Positions 3,173 to 19,789 of a stretch of DNA of 64,000 nt are shown here, piece after piece. Under the pieces are notes generated by a model. That model ran no database searches. It was not told where the DNA came from and saw only the letters and a program-made list of their open reading frames with translations. The stretch covers positions 3,713 to 67,712 of the forward strand of contig CAMOCC010000003.1 in NCBI GenBank assembly GCA_946610035.1. Direction: 5' to 3'. Within the stretch, counting starts at the first letter, position 1; each line of letters opens with the position of its first letter. The DNA comes from an uncultured Verrucomicrobiota bacterium (lineage in GTDB: Bacteria; Verrucomicrobiota; Kiritimatiellia; RFP12; UBA1067). Both the position numbers and the translations under genes were made by a program.

Positions 3173-5020
3173 ATGTGCGGAATAGTAGGATTCACGTCGT
3201 TGTCGACGCCGGCCGTCGGACCGCTTGTGAGCGGCCTGAGGCGGCTTGAATACCGCGGATACGACTCCGCCGGCGTCGCGCTTGAGGGTGCGGACGGAAT
3301 ACACGTCTACAAGCAGACCGGCAAGGTCGCGGAGCTGGACAAGCTCCTCAAGAATGCGCTGAAGACGGACGAGGAGCGCGCGAAGTACACTATAGGCATC
3401 GCACACACGCGCTGGGCGACGCACGGTCTGCCGACGTGCGCAAACGCGCATCCGCACGTTGCGGACGGAGGGAACCTCGCGCTCGTGCACAACGGCATCA
3501 TCGAGAACTACGCCGCGCTGCGTGCTGGGCTGGAGAAGCGCGGATGCAAGTTCCTTTCGCAGACCGACACCGAGGTCCTCGCGCACCTCGTCGCGACGTT
3601 CGACAAGGGCGACCTCCTCTCCGCCGTTTCGCAGGCGCTGAAGCAGGTCGAGGGAACCTACGGGATTGCCGTCATATCCGCCCGCCATCCGGGCGAGATG
3701 ATCGTCGCGCGCAAGGGCTCGCCGCTCGTCATCGGCGTCGGCGAGCACGAGACCGTCGTCGCGAGCGACGTCTCGGCGATCGTCGCCTACACGCGCCAGG
3801 TGATATACTTGAAGGACGGCGACGTCGCGCGCATCACGCCGGAGGGCTTCTCCATCTGCTCGCTGGACAACGCGCCGGTCTCCCGCGAGGTGCAGGAGGT
3901 CGACTGGGACCTCGGCGCGATCGAGAAGGGCGGCTACGAGCACTTCATGCTCAAGGAGATCTTCGAGCAGCCCGATGCGCTGAAGAACACGATCCGCGGA
4001 CGCCTCGACACGTCGGCGGGGACGGCGATCCTCTCGGGGCTCAACCTCCCGCCGCGCGAACTTGCGGCGATAAGGCGGCTCGTCATAATCGGCTGCGGAA
4101 CGTCCCTCCACGCGGGCATGGTCGGCAAGTACCTCTTCGAGGGCCTTGCTGACCTTCCGACCTCGCCGGAGCAGGCGGCGGAGTTCCGGTACTCGAATCC
4201 CATAGTTGGCCCTGACGACTGGGTGATCGCGCTGTCGCAGTCCGGCGAGACGGCGGACACCCTCGCGGCGGTGCGCGAGTCGATCCGCAAGGGTGCGCTC
4301 GTCTCGGGCCTCTGCAACGTCGTCGGCTCGACGATCGCGCGCGAGGCCGGGAGGGGCGTCTACCTGCATGCGGGGCCGGAGATTTCCGTCGCCTCGACCA
4401 AGGCGTTCACCGCGCAGGTTACGGCGCTTCTCATGATGGCGCTCAAGATGGGCCGCACGCGGCGCCTCTCGCGCGAGGCGGGCGACAGGCTGGTGTCCGA
4501 AATCCAGCGCATACCGGAGCTGGTGGCCGAGGTGCTGAAGCAGAACGACGCAATCGCCCGTATCGCGGAGAAGTACGCGAAGGCGGACGACATGTTCTTC
4601 ATCGGACGCGGCATCCTCTATCCGACGGCGCTCGAGGGCGCGCTCAAGATCAAGGAGGTCGCCTACGTCCACGCCGAGGGCTACCAGGCGGCGGAGCTCA
4701 AGCACGGCCCCATCGCGCTCCTCTCGCCCGAGACGCCGGTCGTCGCGCTCCTCGCGGACATCCCCGGCAAGGAGAAGACGGTCGGGAACGTCCAGGAGTG
4801 CAAGGCGCGCCGCGCGCCCGTCATCGGAATAGCGACGGATGGGGACGCCGACGCAGCGGCCCATGTGGACGACGCGATCTTCATACCGCGCGTCTCGCCT
4901 TCGCTCTCGCCGATAGTGACGGTCGTCGCCCTGCAGCTCTTCGCATACCATGTCGCGCGGCTGAGGGGCTGCGAGATCGACCAGCCCAGGAACCTTGCGA
5001 AGTCGGTGACTGTGGAGTGA
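3173..5020 (+). CDS. glmS: Glutamine--fructose-6-phosphate aminotransferase
   Basis: Starts MCGIVGF (Ntn Cys). Two SIS domains. Ends ...NLAKSVTVE. 615 aa. Confidence 0.95.
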   Translation: MCGIVGFTSLSTPAVGPLVSGLRRLEYRGYDSAGVALEGADGIHVYKQTGKVAELDKLLKNALKTDEERAKYTIGIAHTRWATHGLPTCANAHPHVADGGNLALVHNGIIENYAALRAGLEKRGCKFLSQTDTEVLAHLVATFDKGDLLSAVSQALKQVEGTYGIAVISARHPGEMIVARKGSPLVIGVGEHETVVASDVSAIVAYTRQVIYLKDGDVARITPEGFSICSLDNAPVSREVQEVDWDLGAIEKGGYEHFMLKEIFEQPDALKNTIRGRLDTSAGTAILSGLNLPPRELAAIRRLVIIGCGTSLHAGMVGKYLFEGLADLPTSPEQAAEFRYSNPIVGPDDWVIALSQSGETADTLAAVRESIRKGALVSGLCNVVGSTIAREAGRGVYLHAGPEISVASTKAFTAQVTALLMMALKMGRTRRLSREAGDRLVSEIQRIPELVAEVLKQNDAIARIAEKYAKADDMFFIGRGILYPTALEGALKIKEVAYVHAEGYQAAELKHGPIALLSPETPVVALLADIPGKEKTVGNVQECKARRAPVIGIATDGDADAAAHVDDAIFIPRVSPSLSPIVTVVALQLFAYHVARLRGCEIDQPRNLAKSVTVE

Positions 5021-5027
5021 GTCGGCG

Positions 5028-7232
5028 GTGAAGAGGGACGAGCGCAGAGGCTACGGATTCGGGACGTTCCAGGGCGTCTTCACCCCCAGCATACTCACGA
5101 TCATCGGCGTCGTGATGTACCTCCGCTTCGGGTGGATGCTAGGCCACGTCGGCCTTGCGACGTCCCTGGTCATCGTGACGATTGGAAGCATAATAACCTT
5201 CCTGACGGGGCTTTCCATATCCGCCCTCGCATCCAACATGCGTATGGAGGGCGGCGGGGCGTACTACATGCTCTCGCGGTCCTTCGGCGCGGAGGCCGGC
5301 GTTGCGCTCGGGATACCGCTTGCGCTCTCGCAGGCGATAAGCGTCTCGTTCTACGTCGCGGGCTTCGCCGAGGCGCTCGTCAACTCGGGCCTTCCGGTCG
5401 TCGGCGGATGGGACCCCCGCATCGTCGGCTTCACGACGCTTTCGGTCCTCGCGGTCGTCTCGACGATAAGCGCCAACATCGCGCTCAAGAGCCAGTACTT
5501 CATCATGGCGGCGATAGCGTTCTCGCTCGTCGCCTTCTTCATGGGCGGGACGCCGGCGAACCTTGTCGCGCCGCCGGAGGAGCCGGAGTCCATCGGCTTC
5601 TGGCCCGTCTTCGCGGTCTTCTTCCCGGCGGTGACGGGGATACTCTCGGGCGTCGGGATGTCGGGCGACCTGAGGCGTCCGCGCAAGTCGATCCCGCGCG
5701 GCACAATCGCCGCGGTGCTGACCGGGTACGCGGTCTACATGACCGTCCCGATCGTCCTCAACCGTTTCGTGTCCGATCCCGCGATCCTCAAGACCGATTC
5801 GATGATACTCGCCAAGTGCGCCCGCTGGTCGGTCGCGATCCTTGTCGGAGTCTGGGCGGCGACGCTCTCGAGCGCGGTCGGGAGCTTCCTCTGTGCGCCG
5901 CGCGTCTGCCAGGCTCTGGCAAGGGACCGCATCCTGCCGCGCCTCTTCGGAATCGGCTTCGGCAGGACGGACGACCCGAGGCTGGCCGCGATGGTCTGCT
6001 TCGCGATCGCCGCGGCGGGGCTGTGGTTCGGCGACATAAACGTGATAGCGCCGATCCTCACGATGTTCAACCTCTCGACGTACGCCCTGCTCAACCTCTC
6101 GGCGGGGCTGGAGTCCGCAATGGGCAACCCCTCGTGGCGGCCGACATTCCGCGTAAAGGCCGTGTTCTCGCTTCTCGGCTTCGCGCTGTGCATCGGCGCG
6201 ATGTTCATGATAAGTCCGGGATGGACCTTCGCCGCCCTTGGGTGCGAGGCGCTCCTGTACTGGACGGTGAAGCGCCGTGCGCTGAGGGCGCGCTGGGGCG
6301 ACATGCGCACGGGGCTTCTCGTCGCCCTCGCCCGCTTTGCGATGGTGCGGCTGGAGGGCAGGGACAAGGACTTCCGCAACTGGAGGCCGGACGTCCTTGC
6401 GTTCGTGGGGCTGCCGATCAAGTCGTCCGAGGTCGTCCACCTCTCACGTGCGATATCGGGGAACAGGGGGATGGTGACCCTCGCCTCGGTGATTCCCGAG
6501 GCGGCGGGAACGCCCGAGCGCGAGCAGGAGCTGTCGGTCTTCCTCCGCAACGCGGCGAGGAAGGAGGGGCTCAACGCGCTCGTCCGCATCCACGCGGCGC
6601 CGGATCAGTGGAAGGGCATGAAGGAGCTCGTACGGCTCTACGGGTTCGGTCCGTTCGTCCCTGACACGATCCTCCTCGGCGTCCCGGCGAAGGACGCGCA
6701 GCTGGGGCCGATCGCGGAGCTGACGTACTTCCTCTCATCCCGAAGCCGCAACGCCGTTCTTGTGCGCGACAGGCTCGACGTCGCCGAGGATGAGCCCGGT
6801 CCGGAGCGTAGGATCGACATCTGGTGGCGCGGAAAGAACCAGAACGGTCCGTTCATGCTCGCCCTTGCAAGGCTCATGGAGCAGGAGCAGAGCGCGAGGT
6901 GCAGGTTGCGAATCTGCCAGGTTGCCGAGCAGGGCGTCGACCCCGGCGATGCGAAGCGGCTGCTCAAGGCCTTCCTCGACGAGGCGCGAGTGGAGGCTGA
7001 TGTGTTCGTAAAGGCGTACGACCCCGCAACGCCCCCCGTCGACAGCCTCGCCAAGGCGTCCGCCGACGCGGAATTCGCCTTCATCGGACTTCGTTCGCCT
7101 GGCGAAGGGGAGTCCCCGACGGACTATGCGGACTACTTCGCCACGATGCGCGACGCGACTGCGGCGCTTCCGTGTGCGATCTTCGCACTCGCCGCCGAAG
7201 GAGTGGACTTCAAGCGCATATACAGGGAGTGA
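5028..7232 (+). CDS. Cation:chloride cotransporter-like (SLC12/APC superfamily) membrane transporter with cytoplasmic C-terminal domain
   Basis: 734 aa, GTG start. N-terminal FGTFQGVFTPSILTIIGVVMYLRFGWMLG is typical of SLC12-type permeases. About 12 hydrophobic segments, then a ~300-aa soluble tail. Confidence 0.75.
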   Translation: MKRDERRGYGFGTFQGVFTPSILTIIGVVMYLRFGWMLGHVGLATSLVIVTIGSIITFLTGLSISALASNMRMEGGGAYYMLSRSFGAEAGVALGIPLALSQAISVSFYVAGFAEALVNSGLPVVGGWDPRIVGFTTLSVLAVVSTISANIALKSQYFIMAAIAFSLVAFFMGGTPANLVAPPEEPESIGFWPVFAVFFPAVTGILSGVGMSGDLRRPRKSIPRGTIAAVLTGYAVYMTVPIVLNRFVSDPAILKTDSMILAKCARWSVAILVGVWAATLSSAVGSFLCAPRVCQALARDRILPRLFGIGFGRTDDPRLAAMVCFAIAAAGLWFGDINVIAPILTMFNLSTYALLNLSAGLESAMGNPSWRPTFRVKAVFSLLGFALCIGAMFMISPGWTFAALGCEALLYWTVKRRALRARWGDMRTGLLVALARFAMVRLEGRDKDFRNWRPDVLAFVGLPIKSSEVVHLSRAISGNRGMVTLASVIPEAAGTPEREQELSVFLRNAARKEGLNALVRIHAAPDQWKGMKELVRLYGFGPFVPDTILLGVPAKDAQLGPIAELTYFLSSRSRNAVLVRDRLDVAEDEPGPERRIDIWWRGKNQNGPFMLALARLMEQEQSARCRLRICQVAEQGVDPGDAKRLLKAFLDEARVEADVFVKAYDPATPPVDSLAKASADAEFAFIGLRSPGEGESPTDYADYFATMRDATAALPCAIFALAAEGVDFKRIYRE

Positions 7233-7277: not shown

Positions 7278-7306
7278 TTGTCCGCTGACGGCAGATATGA
7301 TATACT
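7278..7306 (+). promoter_or_regulatory. Promoter of tRNA-Ala (-35 TTGTCC, 17-nt spacer, extended -10 TGATATACT)
   Basis: TTGTCC at 7278-7283, TG at 7298-7299, TATACT at 7301-7306. The tRNA starts at 7327. Confidence 0.6.
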
Positions 7307-7326
7307 ATCACCTGTTTTCACCACTT

Positions 7327-7402
<76 letters not shown>

Positions 7403-7411
7403 AATCGAAAG

Positions 7412-7451
7412 TGCGTTTCGCCCAATGAATACAAGGGTGAAGCGCATTTTT
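7412..7451 (+). terminator. Rho-independent terminator after tRNA-Ala
   Basis: 12-bp stem 7412-7423 / 7435-7446 (2 G-U pairs), 11-nt loop, then TTTTT at 7447-7451. Confidence 0.65.
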
Positions 7452-7508
7452 GTTTCGTTGAAAGGTCGCTGCTACCCATGTTTGCGGTGGAAATGGGAGC
7501 GCGGATGG

Positions 7509-7516
7509 TGTATAAT
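7509..7516 (+). promoter_or_regulatory. -10 element (GTGTATAAT) driving structured RNA copy A
   Basis: TATAAT at 7511-7516 preceded by TG. It is homologous in position and flanks to the promoter at 18096-18104. Confidence 0.5.
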
Positions 7517-7526
7517 GGCCGCCGTT

Positions 7527-7704
7527 CAAGACATCAAGATGCTTTCGCGCAAGCGAAGCACCAACCGAGCGGAAGCCACGGTGGTTCCGGCAAGATGCCG
7601 GGATGTGTCCCGAAAAGGGAAAACATCTTCCCATCAGGCGCCCGTCTTGAACCGAGACGGGTGGCTTTGCGGTTGCGGGACATGGCGTCTTCTTGATGTG
7701 CTTG
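7527..7704 (+). ncRNA. Candidate structured RNA / conserved 5' leader, copy A (unassigned family)
   Basis: Closing helix 7531-7538 / 7692-7699. GNRA (GCAA) hairpin 7540-7560. Conserved CCAACCGAGCG...GCCACGGTGG. TCCC-GAAAA-GGGA hairpin 7608-7620. Hairpin 7641-7661 followed by GGTGGCTT. Alignable to 18116-18289 with compensatory changes. Confidence 0.55.
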
Positions 7705-7719
7705 TGCGGACAGGATGAC

Positions 7720-8067
7720 ATGATTCCGAAGGAGAAGAAGGACGAATGCGTGGCGCGGTTCACGCAAAACCCCTACTGGCGGGCGTATCTCGACAATGCG
7801 CCCGAAAGCGCAAAGGCGTACATCAAGATGATGTTCACCTTCTCGCTTCTTGGTGAAGGTGAACGCAACGGAGAATTCAAGGAGCAGTTCGCAACTGAAC
7901 GGAATTCTCTACCAGCAGACGCGCTTCTCTCTTTACGAGAACGAGAAAAATACAATGGCGAAGAGAATCTACAAGAAGTTGCTCTACACGAAAGTCGCAA
8001 CGCCCGACGACGACAACGGCGGCGAGCGAACGCACATCACGGAAGACGCGATGCATTCCGCCCTTGA
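7720..8067 (+). CDS. Hypothetical protein (small ORF, overlaps next ORF out of frame; possible frameshifted N-terminus)
   Basis: ATG at 7720 just after RNA copy A. The first ~75 residues look protein-like (MIPKEKKDECVARFTQNPYWRAYLDNAPESAKAYIKMMF...). The Arg-rich tail after about 7955 looks non-coding. Confidence 0.35.
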   Translation: MIPKEKKDECVARFTQNPYWRAYLDNAPESAKAYIKMMFTFSLLGEGERNGEFKEQFATERNSLPADALLSLREREKYNGEENLQEVALHESRNARRRQRRRANAHHGRRDAFRP

Positions 8068-8788
8068 AGCGTTCATAGGCAAGCCGTCGAAGGACGAAAG
8101 CGGCAACGTCGTTTGGGATGGCGGCAACGAATACTGGCGCGACCTCTTCATGGAAGCTCCTACGGTGGCGCGTCTACGCCTTTCCTTGAATTTCTACTTC
8201 TCTGAGAACCACGAGAGACCCAACTTCCCGATGCTTGAATATCGTGCCATCCGCAAGGCAATCGAGGATGCAATGGACTTCGACTCGCTCGAATACCTCA
8301 TCGCAAACGAAAGTAACGTAGCGGCGAAGAACCATTACATAGGCATCTGGAAAGCGCGAATGGGCATGAAAGACAACTCTGATGACGAATGGAAACGCCT
8401 TATGCGCCGTGCAAGTACCGTCACCTCAAAGGCGAGCGTTGGCATGGCGTATCAGCGCATCAAAGGAAAGCCGTTTCCCGTCGCGAAGGCGAGAAGCGCA
8501 CTATGGCGCGGGGTATGGGTCTCTTCCGACGAATATGCCGCCGCACCCGAATGGGCGAAGCGATACTGCGAGCATAACGGATGGGTTGAGTATATCGGCA
8601 GGGGCGAACTGCCAGACGGCAAGGACGGGCGCAAGATGGACTATGCGTACATCTGCACGAAAATGAAAGACGCCGACTGGGACTTCCTCATAAAGCACAC
8701 CCACTCATACGCTCGCGGCATGGCTATCGGCATGGCGCGTAGGCATTACCAGCACAAGGACATTCGCGGCAACCCGATTGAGGGATAG
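7955..8788 (+). CDS. Hypothetical protein (no recognisable domain)
   Basis: Long ORF with balanced composition. I prefer the internal start MAKRIYKKLLY at 7955 to the ORF-track start at 7850. Confidence 0.55.
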   Translation: MAKRIYKKLLYTKVATPDDDNGGERTHITEDAMHSALEAFIGKPSKDESGNVVWDGGNEYWRDLFMEAPTVARLRLSLNFYFSENHERPNFPMLEYRAIRKAIEDAMDFDSLEYLIANESNVAAKNHYIGIWKARMGMKDNSDDEWKRLMRRASTVTSKASVGMAYQRIKGKPFPVAKARSALWRGVWVSSDEYAAAPEWAKRYCEHNGWVEYIGRGELPDGKDGRKMDYAYICTKMKDADWDFLIKHTHSYARGMAIGMARRHYQHKDIRGNPIEG

Positions 8789-8789
8789 G

Positions 8790-10247
8790 CTATGCGGTTT
8801 GCAACTCCGCCAAGCCCTTTGCGGTAAGGCGGTACTTTTGCGTGGGCGAACGCGGAGAATCGGGCTGTGACATTTCAATCAGCCCTTGCTCAAGTGCGGG
8901 GTTCAAATAGCGTGTGCGAAGCCTTTTACGGTCTTTTATGCCGATGCAAAGGAGCAATTCGGCATTGCCTTTTTCCCTGCGTCCAATGGCTTTTAGCAGA
9001 CGAATTACAAGAGCATCTACTGGGGGTGTTACTGGGGGTGTTACTGGGGGTGTCGCTTGTAGGCTACTTGTAGGGTTGCTTGTAGGGTTGATGCCTACTT
9101 GGGGTCTTACTGGGGGTGTTACTTGGGGTGTCGCTTGTTCGGCTTCCACCACCTGCCCCTCCCTGTCCTTGGTGATGTATGGGACGGTCATGCGGATGAA
9201 GTTGTCGAGAAACACGAAGTTCTCCCGCCCGTATTTCTGCATGATGTAGCCCATGCCGGAACCGAGCGATTCGACGAGTTCAAGGTCGCGGAAGATGCGC
9301 ATCAATTCCTTATTGCGCGGAATTGAGACACCCGCGAAGAAGTCATCCTTTGTCAGACCTTCCGGCAAGCGTCCGAACGATGTTATCTCCAGATGGTCGG
9401 AGAAGAGTTCGACCTTGGGCGGCACTTCGCGAGTGTAGTCGTTGTGGACGATGGCGTTGATAACGGCTTCGCGCACGGCTCTTTCGTCCCACAGCGGCGT
9501 GTCAATGCGCTCCAAAGCGGTTTTGCGCGTCCGCACGGTGTTCTCCACCTTCAGCCGTTCGATTACGCGCTTTGTAGCGGTGACGAGCGATGTCATGCCG
9601 TATTCGTTGTTGGCGACGAGTTCCACGCGGTCGCGCCCTGCGTACTTCGCAACCTTGATTGAGTTCGCGTTTTCGTCGGCAAGCAGATATGCGGCGTAGT
9701 TGTATGCGCCGTCGTCCGTCAGCAGTTCCAGCGTCCGCGCAAAATTGTCGTTGAGTTTGAAGCCATGTTCTTGGTAGTAGATGCGCAACTGCTCGAAGGT
9801 GAGGTCTTGGCGGACGGAGCGGATGCGCCCGATGGAGTTGCGCACACGCCTTGCGAACAGGTCTTCTATCATCGACTCCGGCATCGGTTCGCAAGCCGTG
9901 CCAATTCGGATGAAACAGCCTTTGGGGGTCATGCCGTATCGCTTGAGGTAGTACGGCTTCTCGCTCCCGCCGGCAAAGAACACCTTGATTACCTTCACCC
10001 CGCCTACCTCGTCCGCCGTCACGTCGAACAGCCCCATCGCGGACGGAAGTATGTTGTTGCGCAGTCTGTCCTTGATTCGGAGCATATCGCCGTCGATGTC
10101 CTTCACGCCGACAGGATTCCCCAGTTTGTCGATGCCGATGTACAGGATGCCGCCTTCACGTCGATTGAGAAAAGCAACGGACTCTTCTTCAAGGTCGATG
10201 TCGGGCGACAATTCACGCTTGTATTCTATCCTGTCTGTTTCAGTCAT
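8790..10247 (-). CDS. AlbA_2 (Schlafen-like) + HATPase_c_4 ATP-binding protein with C-terminal winged-helix; defence-island type regulator/ATPase
   Basis: N-terminus ETDRIEYKRELSPD...GGILYIGID (AlbA_2 signature). REAVINAIVHNDYT (HATPase_c_4-type). Pro/Thr repeat linker (TPPVTPPVTPPV). C-terminal ...PDSPRSPTQKYRLTAKG wHTH tail. Confidence 0.8.
   Translation of the reverse strand: MTETDRIEYKRELSPDIDLEEESVAFLNRREGGILYIGIDKLGNPVGVKDIDGDMLRIKDRLRNNILPSAMGLFDVTADEVGGVKVIKVFFAGGSEKPYYLKRYGMTPKGCFIRIGTACEPMPESMIEDLFARRVRNSIGRIRSVRQDLTFEQLRIYYQEHGFKLNDNFARTLELLTDDGAYNYAAYLLADENANSIKVAKYAGRDRVELVANNEYGMTSLVTATKRVIERLKVENTVRTRKTALERIDTPLWDERAVREAVINAIVHNDYTREVPPKVELFSDHLEITSFGRLPEGLTKDDFFAGVSIPRNKELMRIFRDLELVESLGSGMGYIMQKYGRENFVFLDNFIRMTVPYITKDREGQVVEAEQATPQVTPPVRPQVGINPTSNPTSSLQATPPVTPPVTPPVDALVIRLLKAIGRREKGNAELLLCIGIKDRKRLRTRYLNPALEQGLIEMSQPDSPRSPTQKYRLTAKGLAELQTA
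9019..9138. repeat. Nested 12-bp/30-bp tandem repeats encoding the Pro/Thr linker of the AlbA_2 protein
   Basis: actgggggtgtt x3 at 9019-9054. The block actgggggtgttactgggggtgtcgcttgt (9031-9060) recurs at 9109-9138 with 1 mismatch. cttgtagggttg occurs x2 in between. Confidence 0.85.
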
Positions 10248-10413
10248 CGGGGCATATTATACCATATTCTCATTCCTCATTGGAGGTGCGACCGAAACGA
10301 AAAAGGCGGCTTGGTGCGGCGGTGCGGCAAACAAACCATTAGAACTTCGGGTAGAAATAACCAACGCCAAAATCGCACTCTTGCGTTTTGCCGCCCACCG
10401 CGAAGCGCAAAAA

Positions 10414-10422
10414 TGGTATAAT
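10414..10422 (+). promoter_or_regulatory. Extended -10 promoter TGGTATAAT upstream of the RM gene leader
   Basis: Exact TGgTATAAT at 10414-10422, about 240 nt upstream of the ATG at 10662. Confidence 0.55.
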
Positions 10423-10525
10423 ACACACCAATTCAAGCCGCCAATGCCCCGGCATGGGCGGCGCGAAGGACATAGCCAACGCGGACATGGTGTCCGTTGA
10501 GGAGTTTGCAGGGAACTGCAACAAT

Positions 10526-10655
10526 CGCTGATTTGAAACCTGAAAAGTTCAGTCTATAGTGATTCGTTGTGGGGTTCACGCGAAAGCGTGGCCTCTCTTC
10601 GTGTACTATAGACTGGCAATCTCAGGGCCTCAAATCAGCGCATGAAAGAGAGGCC
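10526..10655 (+). promoter_or_regulatory. Structured 5' leader of the type IIG RM gene (nested perfect helices; possible SD-sequestering alternative pairing)
   Basis: Perfect 11-bp helix 10526-10536 / 10630-10640. Perfect 11-bp helix 10550-10560 / 10605-10615. GAAA-capped hairpin 10577-10590. 10-bp pairing 10590-10599 with 10646-10655, which covers the purine-rich AGAGAGG just before the ATG. Confidence 0.55.
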
Positions 10656-10661
10656 CTTAAA

Positions 10662-13600
10662 ATGACAAAGAAGAATACGACGAACGCGAAGAACCCTTCT
10701 GCAACGAGGGGTTTGGATGGTCAACATGCCGCCATCAATGACTATATTGCAGATGTCGAAAGGATGTGGAAGACAGGAACAGCCCGCGAACACACGTACC
10801 GTTTCGCACTTGTGAATCTTCTTGAAACTCTCATTCCTGGATCTACGGTTGTGAACGATGGCGCGCAGATTGAGTGCGGTGCGCCGGACTGCACTATCAT
10901 ACGAAACGGCATGGCGGTCGGCTACGTAGAGGCAAAGAACATCGGCGTCGGCGACCTCGAAGGGAAGAAGGCAACCGGCAACAAAGAGCAGTTCGACCGA
11001 TACAAAGCCTCGCTCGACAATATCGCCTTTACGGACTACCTTGAATTTCTTTTCTACAGCAAGGGTCAGCTCATAGATTCCGTGCGCATCGGGGAAATCG
11101 CGGGGAAGGACATCCGCCCCCTATCCGAAAACTTCGGCAAGTTCCTTTCGCTCGTGGAAAAGCTCGGCGACGCCACCCCACAAACGGTTACCTCGCCGAC
11201 CCAACTTGCACAGCTCATGGCGGGCAAGGCGCGGCTTCTTCAGGTCGCGGCGCAGAAGCTCCTTTCGAGCGGACACGCGAAAGGCTCCACTCTTTGGGAG
11301 TTGCTGGAGGGATTCAAGCGCGTCCTCATGCCCAACACCACGTCCGAGGAGTTTTCCGACATCTACGCACAGACGCTGACATACGGCATGTTCGCCGCCC
11401 GTCTCCACGATAATACGCCGGAGAATTTTTCGCGCGAAGAAGCGGCGCGGCTCATCCCGAAAAGCAATCCATTCCTGCGCAAACTCTTCAACCACATCAA
11501 TTCGGACATCGAGAAGGAAATCGAGTGGGCGGTCGACGACATCGTGCGCCTGTTCGCCGCCGCAGATGTGCGTGGCATCATGAAGGACTACGGAACGTCC
11601 AAGAAGCGAAGCGACCCGATGATCCACTTCTACGAGGACTTCCTCAACGCCTACGACGCGGGACTGCGCAAGGACAGGGGCGTATGGTACACGCCGCTCC
11701 CGGTCGTGCGCTTCATCGTCCGTGCCGTCGATGACATCCTCACAAAGCGTTTTGGCATCGCAGATGGCATCGCCAGCCGAGACACTGTGCAGGTTTCTGT
11801 GACAGAGAGTTGCGACACGGGAAAGAAACTGACAAAAAAGGTCAAGAAGACCGTGCCGAAAGTCCAGATTCTCGATCCCGCGACGGGAACGGGAACGTTC
11901 CTCGCCGAATGCATCAACCAAATCTACGACAAATTTGCCGCCAACAAGGGCAAGTGGCCCGGCTATGTCGCCGAGAACCTCATTCCGCGTCTCAACGGCT
12001 TTGAGCTTCTGATGGCCCCCTACACGATGGCGCACATCAAGCTCGACCGCGTTCTCGCCGACACCGGCTATGAACACAATACGGACAAACGCTTCAACAT
12101 CTTCCTGACCAACTCGCTTGAGAAGGCGAAGGACTTGGACGGTACGCTCTTCGACATACTCCTCGGCGCGGAGGCGAACGCCGCGAACGCCGTGAAGCGC
12201 GACTGCCCCGTGATGGTCGTCATGGGCAACCCGCCCTACAGCGGCGAAAGCCAAAACAAAGGCGATTTGTTCAAGGACTTCATGAAACTGATGAATGCCT
12301 ACAAGAAAGAGCCGGGAGGCAAAGAGAAGCTGAAGGAGCGCAACCCGAAGTGGCTGAATGACGACTATGTGAAGTTCATCCGTCTTGCGCAGGATTATGT
12401 GGAGCGCAAGGGCGAAGGAATTCTTGCCTATATCAATCCACACGGATTTCTTGACAACCCGACATTTCGAGGAATGCGCTGGAATCTTCTTAATGCGTTT
12501 GATGAAATCTACGTCCTCAACCTTCACGGGAACGCGAAGAGGCATGAGGTCTGCCCAGACGGAAGCAAAGACGAGAACGTGTTCACAATCATGCAGGGTG
12601 TGAGCATCAACGTTTTCGTCAAGACGGGCAAGAAGCCTGCTGGCGCACTCGGCAAGGTTTACTACGCCGACCTGTGGGGGACGCGCAAAGACAAATACAA
12701 GTTCCTCGAATCTACGGGCTTTGCCGATGTTGCCTATGAAGAGGTTAAGCCTGTCACGCCAATGTACTTCTTTGTGCCGAAGAACACAAAAGGCAAAGGT
12801 GTCTATGAAAATGGCTTTAGCATAAAGGAATTATTCATAGAAGATGGCATGGGGGTGACTTCTGCACATGACACCTTTGCGTATGGTGACTATGACACTC
12901 TCGTGCATCGTTTCACAGCGTTTAAGAATTCTTTAGCGCATGAGAATCTTTACGCGAAGTTTAATGTCCGGGAGAAAGCAGGGTGGGATATCGTAAAAGC
13001 GCATAAAGCTCTTCAGGGGACAAACAACATCAGCGATAGTATTCGTCCAATGACGTATCGACCATTTGACGACACTTGTGTATTTTATGATGATACAGTT
13101 GTGTGGCGTAGTGTTCGAAAAATCTTCAACCATTTCATTGCCGGTGAGAATATTGGTCTATGCTTGATACGTATCAATAGCAGGGATAATAATTCTCCTG
13201 TCTTTGTGACGGACAAGATAACCGACAAGACTATTTTGTCGTCAAAAGACAACGCAAACGTCTTCCCTCTCTATCTCTACCACGATACGCTTGGGAAGGT
13301 GGAGAAAGTGCCGAATCTGAACAAAGATGTCGTCACGAAGATTGAAGAATCTCTCCGCGCCTCTGCGTCTCTGCGTGAGAAACCTACGCCCGAGTCCATC
13401 TTCGACTACATCTATGCCGTTCTGCACACACCCGAATACCGCGAACGCTACAGGGAATTCCTCAAGGTCGATTTTCCGCGCATACCATACCCGACTAACG
13501 CCGCGACCTTCAAGAAACTTGCGAAGATTGGCGGCGAACTGCGCGAAACGCATCTGCTGAAGATCAAACCTACAACCAGCGAACGCAACCGCACAGCGAA

Positions 13601-13877
13601 CTTTCCGAAGGCGGGAAGTAACACCGTCGAGGATGTTCGCTTTGTCAACAGCAAGGTGTACATCAACGACGAACAATACTTCGACCATGTGCCGGAAGAG
13701 GCATGGAGCATGTTCATCGGCGGCTACCAACCCGCACAGAAATGGTTGAAGGACAGGAGAGGCCGCACACTCACGAACGAGGACATCGACCACTACCAGG
13801 AGATCATCTTCGCGCTTTCCCGCACCCGCGCCCTTATGCAGAAACTCTCTGCGCTGTCGAAGGAGTGGCTTGGCTGA
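10662..13877 (+). CDS. Single-polypeptide type IIG/IIL-like restriction-modification enzyme (N-terminal PD-(D/E)XK nuclease, gamma-class N6-adenine methyltransferase, C-terminal specificity domain)
   Basis: Nuclease motif GAPDCTI...VGYVEAK. MTase motif I ILDPATGTGTFL and motif IV VVMGNPPYSGES. C-terminal HTPEYRERYREFLKVDFPRIPYP, typical of type ISP/IIG C-terminal domains. Start MTKKNTT chosen at 10662. Confidence 0.8.
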   Translation: MTKKNTTNAKNPSATRGLDGQHAAINDYIADVERMWKTGTAREHTYRFALVNLLETLIPGSTVVNDGAQIECGAPDCTIIRNGMAVGYVEAKNIGVGDLEGKKATGNKEQFDRYKASLDNIAFTDYLEFLFYSKGQLIDSVRIGEIAGKDIRPLSENFGKFLSLVEKLGDATPQTVTSPTQLAQLMAGKARLLQVAAQKLLSSGHAKGSTLWELLEGFKRVLMPNTTSEEFSDIYAQTLTYGMFAARLHDNTPENFSREEAARLIPKSNPFLRKLFNHINSDIEKEIEWAVDDIVRLFAAADVRGIMKDYGTSKKRSDPMIHFYEDFLNAYDAGLRKDRGVWYTPLPVVRFIVRAVDDILTKRFGIADGIASRDTVQVSVTESCDTGKKLTKKVKKTVPKVQILDPATGTGTFLAECINQIYDKFAANKGKWPGYVAENLIPRLNGFELLMAPYTMAHIKLDRVLADTGYEHNTDKRFNIFLTNSLEKAKDLDGTLFDILLGAEANAANAVKRDCPVMVVMGNPPYSGESQNKGDLFKDFMKLMNAYKKEPGGKEKLKERNPKWLNDDYVKFIRLAQDYVERKGEGILAYINPHGFLDNPTFRGMRWNLLNAFDEIYVLNLHGNAKRHEVCPDGSKDENVFTIMQGVSINVFVKTGKKPAGALGKVYYADLWGTRKDKYKFLESTGFADVAYEEVKPVTPMYFFVPKNTKGKGVYENGFSIKELFIEDGMGVTSAHDTFAYGDYDTLVHRFTAFKNSLAHENLYAKFNVREKAGWDIVKAHKALQGTNNISDSIRPMTYRPFDDTCVFYDDTVVWRSVRKIFNHFIAGENIGLCLIRINSRDNNSPVFVTDKITDKTILSSKDNANVFPLYLYHDTLGKVEKVPNLNKDVVTKIEESLRASASLREKPTPESIFDYIYAVLHTPEYRERYREFLKVDFPRIPYPTNAATFKKLAKIGGELRETHLLKIKPTTSERNRTANFPKAGSNTVEDVRFVNSKVYINDEQYFDHVPEEAWSMFIGGYQPAQKWLKDRRGRTLTNEDIDHYQEIIFALSRTRALMQKLSALSKEWLG

Positions 13878-13921
13878 GCTGTTGTGGATGGGGGCGAATC
13901 GCCGTCTAACGGTCGCATATT

Positions 13922-13930
13922 TGCTATAAT
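13922..13930 (+). promoter_or_regulatory. Extended -10 promoter TGCTATAAT for the secreted hydrolase cassette
   Basis: TGcTATAAT at 13922-13930, 24 nt before the ATG at 13955. Confidence 0.5.
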
Positions 13931-13954
13931 AGTAAGCACGATACCACGGCGTGT

Positions 13955-15826
13955 ATGAAGAAAACAAGGCAGACAGCATCCGTTGGCATGGTTTCCCGCC
14001 TCGCAGGGGCAGGGATGCTCTTCGCGTTCGCGGCGTTTCTGACGCCGTTCGCCGCTCATGCGGAGAGCGACCTTGACGCATATTTGCGCGGCAAGATGTT
14101 CCGCATGTGGGTGAACGACGACGCGGACATCGCCGATGGCGAAGATGATTTTGTCGATATCCCGAATCAGTCCAACGCCGACTGCAAGGACAGCGTGGTG
14201 AACGGACGGCGCGATCTTGTCGACTTCTTCCCGATGTGGCTCAACATTTCACCGTTTCAACCGTGGCTTGAAAGCGGCAAGGTCGGTGTGGGGCTCATGC
14301 ATCCCGACGCGGCGATCAACATTGTGTGGACGAGTCTCGGCAATCTGGAGGCGGGGAAGTTCCACCGCGAAGACATCGGCGGGTGCGGTCCGAATCTTGA
14401 TCAGGCTGCGCACACTGCGGCGGTTGTCAGGGTGACGGCTGCGGGAATCAACGTGCCCGACAACGTGCTGGCGATGATTGCGCAGGATTCGTCAAAGGGC
14501 GTGATGATGGCTGAGGGTATCCGCCCTTCGTCCGCGCCGCTTGTCATTGTTTTCTTTGACAAGACGTCGCGACAAGTCCTGTATTCGTTCGGACTTCCCC
14601 TGTGCATCAGCCATGTCGAGGACATGTACCGCTGGGCGAACATCCGGGCGGCGGCGGGGGTCGATGTCGGGACGGGGCGGGAGTCGAGGCTGTCCGAGCC
14701 GTCTGGACTGCCCGATTCGGACACGAACGGAAAGCACTTCCTTTTCGTCCACGGCTATTCAGTCAGCGAGGAAAAGGCGCGCGGATGGGGCGCGGAGATG
14801 TTCAAGCGGATGTGGCAGGCGGGGGCGAACTGTGCGTTCACGGCTGTGACATGGTACGGCGACGACAGCCGCCACGGGTGGTACCTCGACAACACGCCGA
14901 ATTACTACGTCAACGTGGAACATGCATTTGAGTCGGCGTCTGCGCTCACCAACATCGTCGCGCAGTTGTCTGGCGAGAAGGTCATTGCGGCACACAGTCT
15001 CGGCAACATGCTCGTGTCGAGCGCAATTGCCGACCACGGGATGCAAGTCTCGTCGTACTTCATGCTGAACGCGGCGGTGCCGATGGAGGCATACGACGAT
15101 GGGGCGATAACGGACGAGTCCTCATACAACATGGCGAATCCCGACTGGCATGACTACACCAATCGCCTGTGGGCGAGCCGCTGGCACGAGGCGTGGAAGC
15201 GGCTTGACCCGAACGACGGACGTTGCGGGATGACATGGCGCGGCCGGTTCGCAAGCATCACGAACGCCTACAACTACTATTCGACCGGCGAAGACGTCCT
15301 GACGAACGGCGTGGGGCGACTGATGCCGGTTCTCTCTGCGGATTTTGCCTGGTATAATCAGGAGTCACGCAAGGGACAGTGGACGATGCTCCTGCCGGGG
15401 AACAATGAAGCGGGATGGTCGTTCAACAGCGACTATGACAATCTCCTTTCCCACATGAATCCGACGAACGCGGCGGAATTGGCGGACTTGCTGATTTGCA
15501 CAAACTCATTCTTCGGACTTTTCGATGAGCGTGGACTCTACGGAACAAACGGATCGTTCCTTGCTACGCAACCAGCCATCCGAGCACATGCGCTCGCCGA
15601 CGGCATTCCCGCCGAATCGTATGCAGCAGGGGCGAATGCGATTGATCCTGCTGGAATATGGGAATACCGGAATGAAAACATGCCGGAATTATCGCTAGCC
15701 GCATGGGAACGCTTATATGGGGTTGGACATAATCAAGCTTGGAAGCACAGTGATATAAAGAACCGACCGTATCAAGTAGTCCGTGATGTATTTCTGTCAA
15801 TCATTGAGAAAGGAAATCTACGATGA
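13955..15826 (+). CDS. Secreted alpha/beta-hydrolase (lipase/esterase-like) with ~240-aa N-terminal acidic domain
   Basis: Signal peptide ...LFAFAAFLTPFAAHA|ES. HG oxyanion motif FLFVHGYS. Nucleophile elbow AAHSLGN. 623 aa. Confidence 0.7.
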   Translation: MKKTRQTASVGMVSRLAGAGMLFAFAAFLTPFAAHAESDLDAYLRGKMFRMWVNDDADIADGEDDFVDIPNQSNADCKDSVVNGRRDLVDFFPMWLNISPFQPWLESGKVGVGLMHPDAAINIVWTSLGNLEAGKFHREDIGGCGPNLDQAAHTAAVVRVTAAGINVPDNVLAMIAQDSSKGVMMAEGIRPSSAPLVIVFFDKTSRQVLYSFGLPLCISHVEDMYRWANIRAAAGVDVGTGRESRLSEPSGLPDSDTNGKHFLFVHGYSVSEEKARGWGAEMFKRMWQAGANCAFTAVTWYGDDSRHGWYLDNTPNYYVNVEHAFESASALTNIVAQLSGEKVIAAHSLGNMLVSSAIADHGMQVSSYFMLNAAVPMEAYDDGAITDESSYNMANPDWHDYTNRLWASRWHEAWKRLDPNDGRCGMTWRGRFASITNAYNYYSTGEDVLTNGVGRLMPVLSADFAWYNQESRKGQWTMLLPGNNEAGWSFNSDYDNLLSHMNPTNAAELADLLICTNSFFGLFDERGLYGTNGSFLATQPAIRAHALADGIPAESYAAGANAIDPAGIWEYRNENMPELSLAAWERLYGVGHNQAWKHSDIKNRPYQVVRDVFLSIIEKGNLR

Positions 15827-16806
15827 AGAACGTAATGGCATTGGCAATGCTCTTCGCCGCTTCAGGCTGTACTAATGTAATAGCCGCAGTATTCCAGCGG
15901 AATTCCACGGTACACTTCAAGGTCGTTGACTATAACGACAATGCCGTGAGTAATGCCACTGCAAAAATCAATACAATGAAGAAATGGATTCCCGGAGAAA
16001 ACTTCGGGCGCACGGTTTACATGGACGTTTATGGAAATTCTGATACGAATGGCGAGATACATATTACCTTTCCGTGTAAATCCACGATGTTTTCCTACAC
16101 GATAGGTGCGGAAGGTTTCTATGGTTGCGGCGGCGGGGCGCAGTTTGCGGCAGTTCCCGATGGTCTGGATTTGCGACAGACGCAGTTCGAGACAAATCTT
16201 GTCGTGCAGCTGAAGCCAATTGTGAAGCCGATTCCAATGTGCGTCTTGAGACAAATAATCCACCACCCGATGAAATACCCTAATAATGCCACCTCTGGCG
16301 CATGGGGATTCGATATGGAAAAAGGCGATTGGGTGAAGCCTGATGGGAAAGGCGACATTACAGATTTCGTTGTGGAATGTTCTGACGAACACTTTGCAAA
16401 AGACAAGGCCCTTGATTGCGCACTTGTGTTCACCAATAGTGTACACGATGGATTCTATATGGCGAAATGTACTGGAACGAGATTCCGTTCGGACTATACG
16501 GCAGGTACAAATGCCGTATACATGAAGCGTCTTGATTTTGCTTCGTGGGGCAAGAAGTACAAAGGACGATATGCAACGCAACTTCTTGACGATGACGAAT
16601 ATATAGTCATACGTACTCGTACAAAATGCGATGACAGGGGAAATATAGTTTCCGCGCACTATGCAAAGATATATGGACCAATTAATCTTAAGAGCGGAAT
16701 ATATTCAAAAGGGATGTATTTCAACCCCAACGAGAACGATCCGAACCTTGAGGCGGACACGACGGTCAACCTCATCCCGGGCGGAGAAAAGGGGTTCGCA
16801 CCATGA
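15823..16806 (+). CDS. Probable lipoprotein, partner of the hydrolase (paralog of 17053..17973)
   Basis: ATGA overlap with the upstream stop. Lipobox-like MLFAASGC. Shares VxxKVVD, DW..P.GKG, DGFY, Y.V.R.RT....G.V..AHY, FN...ND.NLE blocks with the ORF at 17053. Confidence 0.7.
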   Translation: MKNVMALAMLFAASGCTNVIAAVFQRNSTVHFKVVDYNDNAVSNATAKINTMKKWIPGENFGRTVYMDVYGNSDTNGEIHITFPCKSTMFSYTIGAEGFYGCGGGAQFAAVPDGLDLRQTQFETNLVVQLKPIVKPIPMCVLRQIIHHPMKYPNNATSGAWGFDMEKGDWVKPDGKGDITDFVVECSDEHFAKDKALDCALVFTNSVHDGFYMAKCTGTRFRSDYTAGTNAVYMKRLDFASWGKKYKGRYATQLLDDDEYIVIRTRTKCDDRGNIVSAHYAKIYGPINLKSGIYSKGMYFNPNENDPNLEADTTVNLIPGGEKGFAP

Positions 16807-16985
16807 TTGATAGCGTATCGCGGCAGATTTGCCGCCGTATCGTAGGATTCCTACTTGCATTCGCGGCGGTTCTGACGCCGTTCGCCGCTCATGCGGAAAA
16901 GGCGAATGTCTTTTTCATTCACGGCGCGAACGTGAGCGAAAACGACGCACGGGCTTGGGCGGGCGGTTCCTTCATTCGGACATAA
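16803..16985 (+). pseudogene. Truncated copy of the secreted alpha/beta-hydrolase (signal peptide fused to the HG-motif region, then stop)
   Basis: 60-aa ORF. 16864-16897 matches 14031-14064 (34 nt, 1 mismatch; signal peptide). NVFFIHGANVSENDARAWAGGSF aligns with HFLFVHGYSVSEEKARGWGAEMF of the full gene. The catalytic Ser region is absent. Confidence 0.7.
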
Positions 16986-17052
16986 AGGACGTCGCATATT
17001 TCTTCGTGCATCCAGTCTTTAGAAAGATTGTTGAAGTTGGAGGGTTGAACCA

Positions 17053-17973
17053 ATGAAAACGCTTGCTTGCCTTCTGGCGGCGGTTGGTGTAGCCAATCTC
17101 GCTGTTGCATACAGCCCAATCATCGACGGGGCTTTGGCAGATGTCAGGATCAAGGTGGTTGACGACATGGGCGAGGCCGTGCCAGACGCCACGATCTCCG
17201 TCACGTTCTACACCGCACCGGAAAAGGTCGATGTCAAGCGCGGCAAGACCAATACGCAGGGGTGCTTCTCCGCCAAGGGGCTTTGCATCGGAGAGGTGCA
17301 TACATGGATTCGGAAAGACGGGTACTATGAAACAAAGGCAGACCCCGTTTTCAGAGTCCTTCCCGACAAGGACGCGGAGAAACATCGCAAGTGGTCGAAT
17401 GGGACTGTTGAGACCGTTGCCGTGTTGAAGAAGAAGCGCAACCCCGTAAGCCTTGCCTTCAAGTTCATAGAATACAAGCGGTTCCCTGCGACAAACGAGG
17501 TTGTCAAACTCGACCTTGAGATGCTTGATTGGTGTCCGCCATACGGCAAGGGGCGTCATGACGACATACACATGGTTTTCGACGGTTGGCGCAACCCGAA
17601 AGACTGGTATGACTTCCATGCGCATCTTTCTGTTGAGTTTCCGAATTGCGCTGACGGCTTCTACCGCCGGACGGCCGACACAACGAGCAGCTGCAGATAT
17701 GACTATGTTGCTTCAACGAATGCGGCGTTTGAGAAAGCATTTGACCTTCGCTATGCCCGTGTCATGAATGCCGTGACGAATCGCATGGAATTTGCGAAAG
17801 ACGATTACCTTGTCTATCGAGTGAGGACGCAGACCAATGAACTCGGACATGTGACCCATGCGCACTATGGACGGATTGGCGAGGGGGTAAGCCAGCAGAT
17901 AGGGTCGTCTATGCGTTCTTGGTTCAACGTCAAGGACAACGACACGAATCTGGAGGACGCCAGAGCGTGGTGA
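17053..17973 (+). CDS. Secreted protein, paralog of 15823..16806 (orphan partner of the truncated hydrolase)
   Basis: Signal peptide MKTLACLLAAVGVANLAVA. Conserved blocks shared with 15823..16806. SD GGAGGG upstream. Confidence 0.7.
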   Translation: MKTLACLLAAVGVANLAVAYSPIIDGALADVRIKVVDDMGEAVPDATISVTFYTAPEKVDVKRGKTNTQGCFSAKGLCIGEVHTWIRKDGYYETKADPVFRVLPDKDAEKHRKWSNGTVETVAVLKKKRNPVSLAFKFIEYKRFPATNEVVKLDLEMLDWCPPYGKGRHDDIHMVFDGWRNPKDWYDFHAHLSVEFPNCADGFYRRTADTTSSCRYDYVASTNAAFEKAFDLRYARVMNAVTNRMEFAKDDYLVYRVRTQTNELGHVTHAHYGRIGEGVSQQIGSSMRSWFNVKDNDTNLEDARAW

Positions 17974-18075
17974 CAGCCTATGGGAAAGAAAGCACCTCGT
18001 TTTGTCAGCCTCCGCCGTGCATCCCGAAACGGGTAGCAACGACCCGTGTTTGCGCCGATTTTTCGCGCAACCCCA

Positions 18076-18104
18076 TTGTCCTCGGACGGCGGATTTGGTA
18101 TAAT
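18076..18104 (+). promoter_or_regulatory. Promoter of structured RNA copy B (-35 TTGTCC, 17-nt spacer, TGGTATAAT)
   Basis: TTGTCC at 18076-18081 and TGgTATAAT at 18096-18104. Confidence 0.6.
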
Positions 18105-18115
18105 ATACAGCGTTC

Positions 18116-18289
18116 AGAACATCATGAGTTCATTGCGAAAGCAATGATGCCAACCGAGCGACGGAACTGCCACGGTGGAGTGCGAAAGCGGATGTGCCCG
18201 AAAGGGAAACTGGGTTCCAGAGCCACCAGTTTTGGACAAAGACTGGTGGCTTGAAGTTTCTCCAAGGGGTGCATTGCTCGTGGTGCTTT
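18116..18289 (+). ncRNA. Candidate structured RNA / conserved 5' leader, copy B (same family as 7527..7704)
   Basis: Closing helix 18116-18128 / 18277-18289 (includes G-U pairs). GNRA (GAAA) hairpin 18130-18147. Conserved CCAACCGAGCG...GCCACGGTGG. CCC-GAAA-GGG 18197-18206. 9-bp hairpin 18222-18250 followed by GGTGGCTT. Confidence 0.55.
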
Positions 18290-18327
18290 GAGCGGACAAA
18301 GAAAAACGAGAAACGAAAGGAGAAACG

Positions 18328-18639
18328 ATGAGACAGGCAAGACCGACGACCTACGCGCTGATGAGCCGGTGCGACATCGGCGACGCGGCGAAAATCATGA
18401 CGCTTGCGGACGCACAGGACGTGACGATGAGCGTCATCGTTGCGCGGCTCGTCCACGATGCTGTGCGCCATGTGGCGGCGACCCCGAAGGCGGAGGCATG
18501 GGCGGCAAGACGCCTCGCCGCCAACACTGCGCGACGGGCGCGTGTGGATGCCGCCGTCCGTGCGGGACGCGACCGCAAGCCCGGATGGGAACACACAAAG
18601 AGGTTTGCGGGCAAGGACAACAGCCAGAGGGGAGCGTGA
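18328..18639 (+). CDS. Hypothetical small protein (possible DNA-binding/regulatory)
   Basis: SD AAAGGAG upstream of the ATG. 103 aa with a basic C-terminus. Preferred over the antisense 262-aa ORF (18130..18918), which has the Arg/Ser/Pro-rich composition of a shadow frame. Confidence 0.45.
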   Translation: MRQARPTTYALMSRCDIGDAAKIMTLADAQDVTMSVIVARLVHDAVRHVAATPKAEAWAARRLAANTARRARVDAAVRAGRDRKPGWEHTKRFAGKDNSQRGA

Positions 18640-18643
18640 CGCC

Positions 18644-19261: not shown

Positions 19262-19273
19262 CGAAAGGAGACG

Positions 19274-19780: not shown

Positions 19781-19789
19781 GTATACAAA

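Follow-up and report, generated by a model that had tools for sequence, protein, structure and literature searches.

Two SAM-I/IV riboswitches predicted in a decayed integrative element and defence island of an uncultured Verrucomicrobiota bacterium

The SAM-I/IV riboswitches (Rfam RF01725) were first described as 'variant SAM-I/SAM-IV' (Weinberg et al. 2010; PMC2864571). Their original distinguishing mark, relative to SAM-I and SAM-IV, is a P2 helix without an internal loop (PMC2864571; PMC6890682). In SAM-I the residues within 5 Å of S-adenosylmethionine (SAM) are 6–8, 11–12, 44–47, 57–59 and 87 (PMC6890682). The subject of this text is a pair of homologous leaders, copy A and copy B, found in 64,000 nucleotides (nt) of contig CAMOCC010000003.1 (positions 3,713 to 67,712 of the forward strand; assembly GCA_946610035.1) from an uncultured Verrucomicrobiota bacterium. 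This whole stretch is called the window and positions are counted from its first letter. The two copies are new members of SAM-I/IV and not a new RNA family. It is very probable that they are SAM-I/IV-class SAM riboswitches, each with its own promoter and each forming the 5' leader of the next operon, as predicted from the analysis below. The unusual aspect is the mobile-element and defence setting of this known class.

The homology of 7460–7719 and 18040–18327, on which an earlier note made from the letters alone was built, amounts to 74% column identity; the aligned part begins about 60 nt before the -10 box and runs as far as the start codon. The blocks CCAACCGAGCG, GCCACGGTGG, GGATGTG, CCCGAAA/GGGAAA and GGTGGCTT are identical in A and B, and promoter-like sites are found 5' of both copies. 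The first hairpin keeps its pairing with unrelated stem sequences (7541–7559 in A, 18130–18147 in B). The open reading frames (ORFs) downstream of A and B are unrelated, and closely related copies precede different genes; the conserved unit is thus the RNA with its promoter rather than a gene, as that note had recognized. The parts of copy A are the following.

7488–7516, plus strand: promoter with TGGAAA (7488–7493), a 17-nt spacer and TATAAT (7511–7516), 10/12 consensus matches; transcription would start at about 7523–7525
7526–7636, plus strand: SAM-I/IV aptamer
7531–7535 and 7602–7606, plus strand: the strands of P1
7536–7539, plus strand: J1/2, AAGA
7541–7559, plus strand: P2, GCAA loop
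7561–7584, plus strand: P3 (CCAACC...GGUGG)
7587–7601, plus strand: junction hairpin
7608–7620, plus strand: 3' hairpin
7571–7575 with 7627–7631, plus strand: pseudoknot GGAAG/CUUCC, which covaries in relatives
7636–7666, plus strand: platform hairpin (-22.6 kcal/mol), then GGCTTTGCGG, a decayed T-run
7678–7708, plus strand: 3' strand of the predicted switch, from folds, constrained folds, duplex energies and accessibilities
7711–7722, plus strand: initiation site of gene A, with Shine-Dalgarno AGGA (7712–7715) and start codon (7720–7722)

Copy B has a similar layout.

18076–18104, plus strand: promoter with TTGTCC, a 17-nt spacer and a TG-extended TATAAT (18099–18104)
18114–18222, plus strand: SAM-I/IV aptamer
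18119–18123 and 18191–18195, plus strand: the strands of P1
18124–18127, plus strand: J1/2, AUGA
18130–18147, plus strand: P2, GAAA loop
18150–18178, plus strand: P3
18197–18206, plus strand: 3' hairpin
18163–18167 with 18214–18218, plus strand: pseudoknot GGAAC/GUUCC
18220–18252, plus strand: platform hairpin (-22.7 kcal/mol, z -4.8), then GGCTTGAAG, without a T-run
18256–18263, plus strand: anti-Shine-Dalgarno GUUUCUCC, paired with GGGAAACU in the unconstrained (apo) fold and with GGAGAAAC when the aptamer is enforced
18277–18293, plus strand: anti-P1 strand CUCGUGGUGCUUUGAGC, paired in the apo fold with the 5' strand GUUCAGAACAUCAUGAG (18112–18128)
18317–18330, plus strand: Shine-Dalgarno AAGGAG and start codon (18328–18330) of gene B1

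Rfam cmscan matches RF01725 to 7526–7636 with 42.8 bits and to 18114–18222 with 43.7 bits, in both cases over model positions 1–99 of 99; the gathering score is 41.1 bits. Three matches in the whole window reach the gathering score of their family, namely a tRNA and the two SAM-I/IV copies, and a permissive Rfam scan of the whole window (E ≤ 1) yielded no further RNA matches. Because the margin is small, the assignment was checked independently through relatives and through an own covariance model. A relative linked to metK (L014), whose P3 sequence is that of the window copies, lies equally near the threshold (42.9 bits). The metK-linked relatives that score like the window copies come from Lentisphaerae and Kiritimatiellae; closer relatives obtain 49.9–52.5 bits with RF01725.

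Both aptamers show the architecture of the class: next to P1 and an uninterrupted P2 they have a P3 containing the CCAACC/GGUGG core, another hairpin on the 3' side of P1, and a pseudoknot that joins the P3 loop to the 3' tail. The P2 helix is plain, with seven pairs and, in copy A, one bulged U, and carries neither a kink-turn nor PK-1. The nucleotides which we take to be equivalent to the SAM-I pocket, in our own mapping onto SAM-I numbering, are AUC, GA, CAAC, UGG and A in both copies, and all of them are those of the RF01725 consensus. Two departures from this consensus, at model positions 10 and 14, are beyond the 5 Å shell listed in PMC6890682. Identity with SAM-I (RF00162) was considered and discarded, since Rfam clan competition keeps SAM-I/IV as the best family and P2 is uninterrupted. 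The copies are assigned to SAM-I/IV because the full-model Rfam match is joined by the relatives, covariation, the pseudoknot, P2 and the pocket.

Relatives were gathered from public genomes and metagenomes with a conserved-core pattern that fixes P3. Many were found, in Opitutaceae, Kiritimatiellae, Lentisphaerae and rumen or gut assemblies. Some are directly 5' of metK (…FTSESVSEGHPDK) and share the P3 sequence with the window copies. The relatives referred to below include metK-linked (L014, L080, L105, L107, L112, L124) and island-type loci (L018, L095 and the 'type C' L113, L132, L167, L174). RNAalifold recovered P1, P2, P3 and the 3' hairpin from nine sequences, and the covariance model was built from this alignment. 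It finds exactly two matches in the window at about 91 bits (A 91.4, B 91.8) and 100 matches in the collected loci, including metK-linked riboswitches outside the seed at 60–78 bits. In 96 distinct relatives, in an alignment fitted to the model, 96.9% of the cells are paired, against 80% in shuffles (0/500 reach the observed value) and 32–45% in controls with slid partners. Both sides change in 7/7 pairs of P2, and covariation extends to 3/3 pairs of the 3' hairpin. P3 and most of P1 do not vary and are uninformative, partly owing to the fixed search pattern. The pseudoknot covaries as well, with the pairs GGAAG/CUUCC, GGAAC/GUUCC, CAUGGG/CCCAUG, CAGAC/GUCUG and CGAAC/GUUCG; A and B differ in it by one G:C to C:G change. 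No pseudoknot is detectable in the metK-linked relatives within 22 nt of the 3' hairpin.

Several relatives have settings of their own. Contig URIT01000021.1 of genome UMGS1035 carries a metK-linked copy (L124) and a type C copy (L113) about 20 kb apart, and the type C island of L113 ends at a tRNA gene (4979–5052, minus strand). The Kiritimatiellae metagenome-assembled genome of L105 has a 6S RNA match (2568–2722, 47.1 bits) about 2 kb upstream of its metK-linked riboswitch. The Opitutaceae loci L015, L060, L077, L087, L165 and about 30 others display SAM-I/IV and a terminator followed by a conserved ORF of about 75 amino acids (aa; …NPNHHLWNNHGTWFLHYTVH…LGTKDLAEARQRRD). Its product is similar to the N-terminal arm-binding region of tyrosine integrases. 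The ORF recurs after the riboswitch of L002 (12330–12540, minus strand) and may code for a riboswitch-controlled DNA-binding protein. The viral-collection contig L002 (IMG/VR UViG_3300037781_000208; 9326–12751, minus strand) carries, in this order, SAM-I/IV, a terminator, ORFs of 75, 216 and 209 aa and a C5 cytosine DNA methylase gene (PF00145, 1e-54). It is the sole real riboswitch from a pattern scan of viral contigs, in which 7/8 matches were chance matches in coding sequence.

The minimum-free-energy folds of the full leaders have -93.7 (A) and -85.5 (B) kcal/mol (z -4.8 and -5.0; 0/200 shuffles as good), and both are closed by a long-range helix. The earlier note had read eight base pairs (bp) of it, ACATCAAG (7531–7538) with CTTGATGT (7692–7699), as the closing helix of a multi-helix domain. 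The pairing is real and belongs to a helix of 17–19 bp (in A about 7524–7543 with about 7683–7708), but it is better read as the apo alternative of the P1 5' strand, that is, as expression platform. In the apo folds this 5' strand (GUUCAAGACAUCAAGAUGC in A, GUUCAGAACAUCAUGAG in B) is taken by a distal strand (GCGUCUUCUUGAUGUGCUUGUGC in A, CUCGUGGUGCUUUGAGC in B), in copy B GUUUCUCC pairs with GGGAAACU of the aptamer 3' hairpin and tail, and the Shine-Dalgarno and AUG are open in both leaders. The long-range duplexes have -21.3 (A) and -22.8 (B) kcal/mol, which none of 300 shuffles reaches. Relative L159 has a long-range helix of -18.8 kcal/mol with compensating changes (CAUCCAGAG/CUCUGGA), and L131 one of -14.4 kcal/mol.

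The enforced folds were computed with P1, P2, P3 and the 3' hairpin forced and the pseudoknot bases kept unpaired. In copy A, 7678–7697 then pairs with 7710–7727, which covers the Shine-Dalgarno and AUG and includes UCUU with AGGA; in copy B, GUUUCUCC (18256–18263) pairs with GGAGAAAC (18319–18326). The Shine-Dalgarno is unpaired with a mean probability of 0.59 (A) and 0.92 (B) in the apo ensembles, and of 0.17 (A) and 0.29 (B) once the aptamer is enforced. A translational switch turned off by SAM is predicted for both leaders from these models. Without ligand, the distal 3' strand would capture the P1 5' strand and leave the ribosome-binding site open; formation of the aptamer would free the 3' region to sequester the Shine-Dalgarno. 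Translation of the downstream operon would be off at high SAM and on at low SAM.

In type C relatives (L167 and others) the hairpin homologous to the A/B platform hairpin is a genuine intrinsic terminator (…GGGTGGCTTCGTTTTTTGCGG), and its loop TTGATG is complementary to the P1 5' strand. The hairpins of A and B are followed by GGCTTTGCGG and GGCTTGAAG, and terminator scans report no intrinsic terminator there. The A/B platform hairpin is probably a decayed intrinsic terminator that sister copies still keep. As the T-run is gone in the window copies, translational control is favoured and a transcriptional component is kept as a rival, weighed below.

A natural riboswitch-less allele of the copy A leader is found in three independent assemblies (L186–L188). 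Their tRNA-Ala and gene A are those of the window, the promoter is identical and the two switch strands are present; missing are exactly the 118 nt corresponding to window 7544–7661, from P2 through the platform hairpin. The aptamer therefore appears dispensable for expression of gene A, as expected of a repressing element, and the deleted allele (L186, L188) is a ready-made natural control. Its coordinates are 2745–2985 in L186 and 1807–2047 in L188; L187 has it also. Downstream in these loci are a PIN toxin-antitoxin pair and a type IIG restriction-modification gene.

Copies A and B are found in an island of 47–58% GC (7400–19560) in a window of about 62–66% GC, whose sequence is that of a scaffold in an ENA metagenome assembly (ERZ28612940, scaffold_827). 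The island is bordered by tRNA-Ala and an RNase II-like gene and contains gene A, a Schlafen/AlbA_2-type gene on the minus strand, a type IIG gene, three unknown genes, and copy B followed by B1, B2 and one more ORF. Its features relevant here are the following.

7327–7402, plus strand: tRNA-Ala(GGC), left border of the island and outside the riboswitch (Rfam tRNA 70.1 bits; ARAGORN)
7406–7452, plus strand: terminator hairpin of the tRNA, then T-run TTTTTGTTT (-26.9 kcal/mol, z -7.2)
7720–8788, plus strand: gene A, coding a repeat protein of a helical domain of about 90 aa (NPYW..Y..AP..AK.Y...F...DW.YL), split by a 2-nt gap after 7926
10569–13877, plus strand: type IIG restriction-modification enzyme, between copies A and B (PADLOC REase_MTase_IIG 1.6e-294; Pfam Type_ISP_C, N6_Mtase)
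18328–19564, plus strand: remnant of the copy B operon (B1, B2, 96-aa ORF)
18328–18639, plus strand: B1, 103 aa
18641–19261, plus strand: B2, 206 aa, weakly FtsK/SpoIIIE-like
19274–19564, plus strand: 96-aa ORF

As tRNA-Ala has its own terminator, the copy A leader is a separate transcript. A locus with 98% identity to copy B occurs in rumen genome RUG12088 (L012). In that genome the riboswitch comes immediately after the type IIG gene and leads an operon of B1, a 116-aa ORF, an FtsK-like ORF of about 290 aa, B2, and ORFs of 145 and 402 aa; an HTH_17 excisionase-like gene and a tyrosine integrase form the end of the element. L131 has the same operon, including the 116-aa and FtsK-like ORFs. 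About 1.47 kb of RUG12088 with these two ORFs (L012 5063–6537) is missing between B1 and B2 at window 18646–18654. Beside this loss of about 1.5 kb of operon, the integrase end of the element is lost too. RUG12088 in turn lacks window 13872–18025 with its three or four unknown genes; there the type IIG gene and copy B are direct neighbours. No attR or direct repeat of the tRNA 3' end was found within 7300–20000. Both riboswitches belong to a decayed tRNA-Ala-linked integrative element and defence island. Copy A would control the repeat protein beside the type IIG gene and copy B the FtsK-like/Rep module.

The gene A homologue is a single ORF of 386/389 aa in L136 and L186. In the window the 2-nt gap at 7926–7927 splits it into ORFs of 115 and about 277 aa, the product of either pseudogene formation or an assembly error. 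Gene A has no match in Pfam, PHROGs, PADLOC, NCBIfam or PDB sequences. Its full-length AlphaFold model is poor (predicted local distance difference test, pLDDT, 62) and Foldseek found nothing with it. The single-domain model is good (pLDDT 85.8; predicted template modelling score, pTM, 0.72), with five or six helices, and has no significant match in PDB or BFVD. A profile search with the domain gathered only 170 clusters, mostly stand-alone proteins of 90–130 aa, in which the only informative fusion is to Sel1 repeats. Proteins with this domain are also coded 3' of type C and L140 riboswitch copies, where the neighbours are ADP-ribosylglycohydrolase, J-domain, HIRAN, Sel1, ankyrin, DUF6717 and beta-flower genes. 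In L195/L196 (P0093 context) a stand-alone protein with the domain is coded last in a series of small unknown genes, in the company of a WYL/WCX regulator and a FGase-family gene; a FGase-like gene also follows the riboswitch in L030.

Other features of the island were noted. The earlier note had suspected a third, weaker relative of the leaders following the promoter near 10414. The candidate at 10425–10535 obtains 8.8 bits with the own model (E = 5.5, filters off), which is background level, and no Rfam match at E ≤ 1, so the suspicion is dropped; the promoter alone is similar. This promoter, TGGTATAATAcaca at 10393–10422 upstream of the type IIG gene, resembles that of copy B and is followed by a GC-rich hairpin GCCGCCAATGCCCCGGCATGGGCGGC (10437–10462) without an aptamer. 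Tandem 12-nt repeats (CTACTGGGGGTGTTA-like) at 9005–9150 lie inside the minus-strand Schlafen/AlbA_2-Fic_C gene and code for a PVTPP-type low-complexity linker. A 54-nt direct repeat, 85% identical (14011–14064 and 16844–16897), is positioned near the 5' ends of ORFs 13955–15826 and 16829–17056 and probably codes for a shared N-terminal signal sequence.

A number of results count against the reading of A and B as SAM-responsive translational switches. Their Rfam scores exceed the threshold by just 1.7–2.6 bits, and no SAM, methionine or sulfur-metabolism gene is found 3' of either copy, which is a usual association of the class rather than a structural criterion. The alignment used for the pair counts was fitted to the covariance model, and covariation in P3 is uninformative since the search pattern fixes it. 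The long-range helix is not a universal feature: it was lost in the A-type relative L142 (-9.6 kcal/mol; 120/300 shuffles as good), and in neither L131 nor L159 is it the pairing of minimum free energy. The enforced fold is 15–19 kcal/mol less stable than the apo fold and therefore ligand control must be kinetic; SAM would lock P1 during transcription, before the competing strand, which starts 50–90 nt past the aptamer end, is made. Finally, both regulated operons look damaged, by the gene A frameshift and the deletion after B1, and the cell may have no more use for these particular copies.

The earlier note had proposed that the leaders form a structured RNA family of their own, outside the known riboswitches, and had itself named an Rfam assignment to a known family as the result that would overturn the proposal. 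That assignment was obtained. The downstream genes unlike those of any known riboswitch and the near-threshold scores speak for a new family, but the match covers the full model in both copies, the pocket nucleotides are the same, the pseudoknot is at its expected place, and a sequence continuum leads to the metK-linked SAM-I/IV riboswitches; we give the proposal practically no chance. Hardly more credible is a specificity variant, in which the SAM-I/IV fold would sense another ligand such as S-adenosylhomocysteine (SAH), a SAM derivative or SAM-AMP. The gene context here is atypical, a trait also of other riboswitch variants whose ligand has changed, and SAM-derived signalling molecules are known from the literature on defence systems. 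No pocket nucleotide departs, however, from the SAM-I/IV consensus, the deviations at model positions 10 and 14 being outside the shell, and the metK-linked relatives have the same core.

The aptamers might also be relics carried in a mobile promoter-leader cassette, ligand-unresponsive and at most a stable 5' untranslated region. Such decay would agree with the aptamer-less variants of the same leader, the damage in gene A and in the operon after copy B, the lost T-run of the platform terminator and the helix lost in L142. Yet the pocket and core positions are all intact in copies that have diverged to about 70% identity elsewhere, P2 is still paired despite a wholly different sequence in A and B, the pseudoknot was kept through its G:C to C:G change, and five B-type sequences conserve both the anti-Shine-Dalgarno and the anti-P1 strand. 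We regard the relic explanation as unlikely. Somewhat less unlikely, but still improbable, is a SAM riboswitch that acts mainly on transcription, by termination or pausing at the platform hairpin or in a Rho-dependent manner, instead of at the ribosome-binding site. The type C relatives have the homologous hairpin followed by TTCGTTTTTTG and a loop complementary to the P1 5' strand, the Opitutaceae copies use the same logic, and GUCUUGA (7644–7650) in the copy A hairpin is complementary to UCAAGAC in the 5' strand. Against this stand the missing T-run after both hairpins and the silent terminator scan, the presence of the platform hairpin in apo and enforced folds alike, and the strong difference in Shine-Dalgarno accessibility between the two states. 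The preferred reading remains that of SAM-I/IV riboswitches with a predicted translational OFF switch.

Cofactor riboswitches are normally wired to the metabolism of their own cofactor. Here, the same aptamer and promoter recur before shuffled cassettes (the helical-domain family of gene A, ADP-ribosylglycohydrolase, J-domain, HIRAN, Sel1, ankyrin, a replication/transfer module) that often adjoin SAM-dependent restriction-modification genes. If the copies are functional, mobile elements would use the host SAM level as a decision signal. A bolder idea, which we hold to be speculative and rather doubtful, is that integrative elements and conflict islands in rumen and gut bacteria of the Planctomycetes–Verrucomicrobia–Chlamydiae (PVC) group have captured a SAM-I/IV lineage together with its promoter, and use it as a portable control cassette to read the host SAM pool. 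If so, falling SAM (by starvation or a SAM-degrading phage enzyme) would de-repress the FtsK-like/Rep module and cassette proteins beside SAM-dependent restriction-modification enzymes, and the riboswitch would be a sensor for escape, restriction alleviation or defence instead of methionine homeostasis. In line with capture, copies A and B flank the type IIG gene, L186–L188 also link gene A with a type IIG gene, and the SAM-I/IV of L002 heads an operon that ends in a C5 DNA methyltransferase. The link of island riboswitches to SAM-dependent restriction-modification genes is suggestive. A literature search by topic (SAM riboswitches in mobile elements, anti-phage defence and restriction-modification) found no description of such an arrangement.

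Compared with the known classes, copies A and B share with SAM-I/IV (RF01725) the full match, the core nucleotides of P1, P2 and P3, the plain P2, the 3' hairpin, the pseudoknot and the predicted OFF logic. They differ in that they precede mobile-element and defence-island cargo instead of SAM or methionine genes, in the additional hairpin that copy A has in the P3–P1 junction, and in a platform where the P1 5' strand enters a helix of long range (about 150 nt) and the Shine-Dalgarno is sequestered. With SAM-I (S-box, RF00162), of the same clan (CL00012), they have in common the pocket AUC/GAU in P1, the G in J1/2 and CAAC/UG in P3, whereas the kink-turn in P2, PK-1 and P4 inside a four-way junction are absent. 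SAM-IV (RF00634) is similar in its hairpin 3' of P1 and its PK-2-type pseudoknot with the P3 loop (PMC6890682), but has a split P2a/P2b with PK-1 where copies A and B have a simple-hairpin P2. Also close are the SAM-I/IV copies of gut and rumen PVC bacteria, which have the P3 sequence CCAACCGAGC...GCCACGGTGG of the window copies and several of which precede proteins with the uncharacterized domain of gene A. The island-type relatives have in addition the same tail GGGAAAAC, the pseudoknot and a homologous platform hairpin, while the metK-linked copies have a platform unlike that of the window copies and type C relatives, in contrast to A and B, retain a true terminator.

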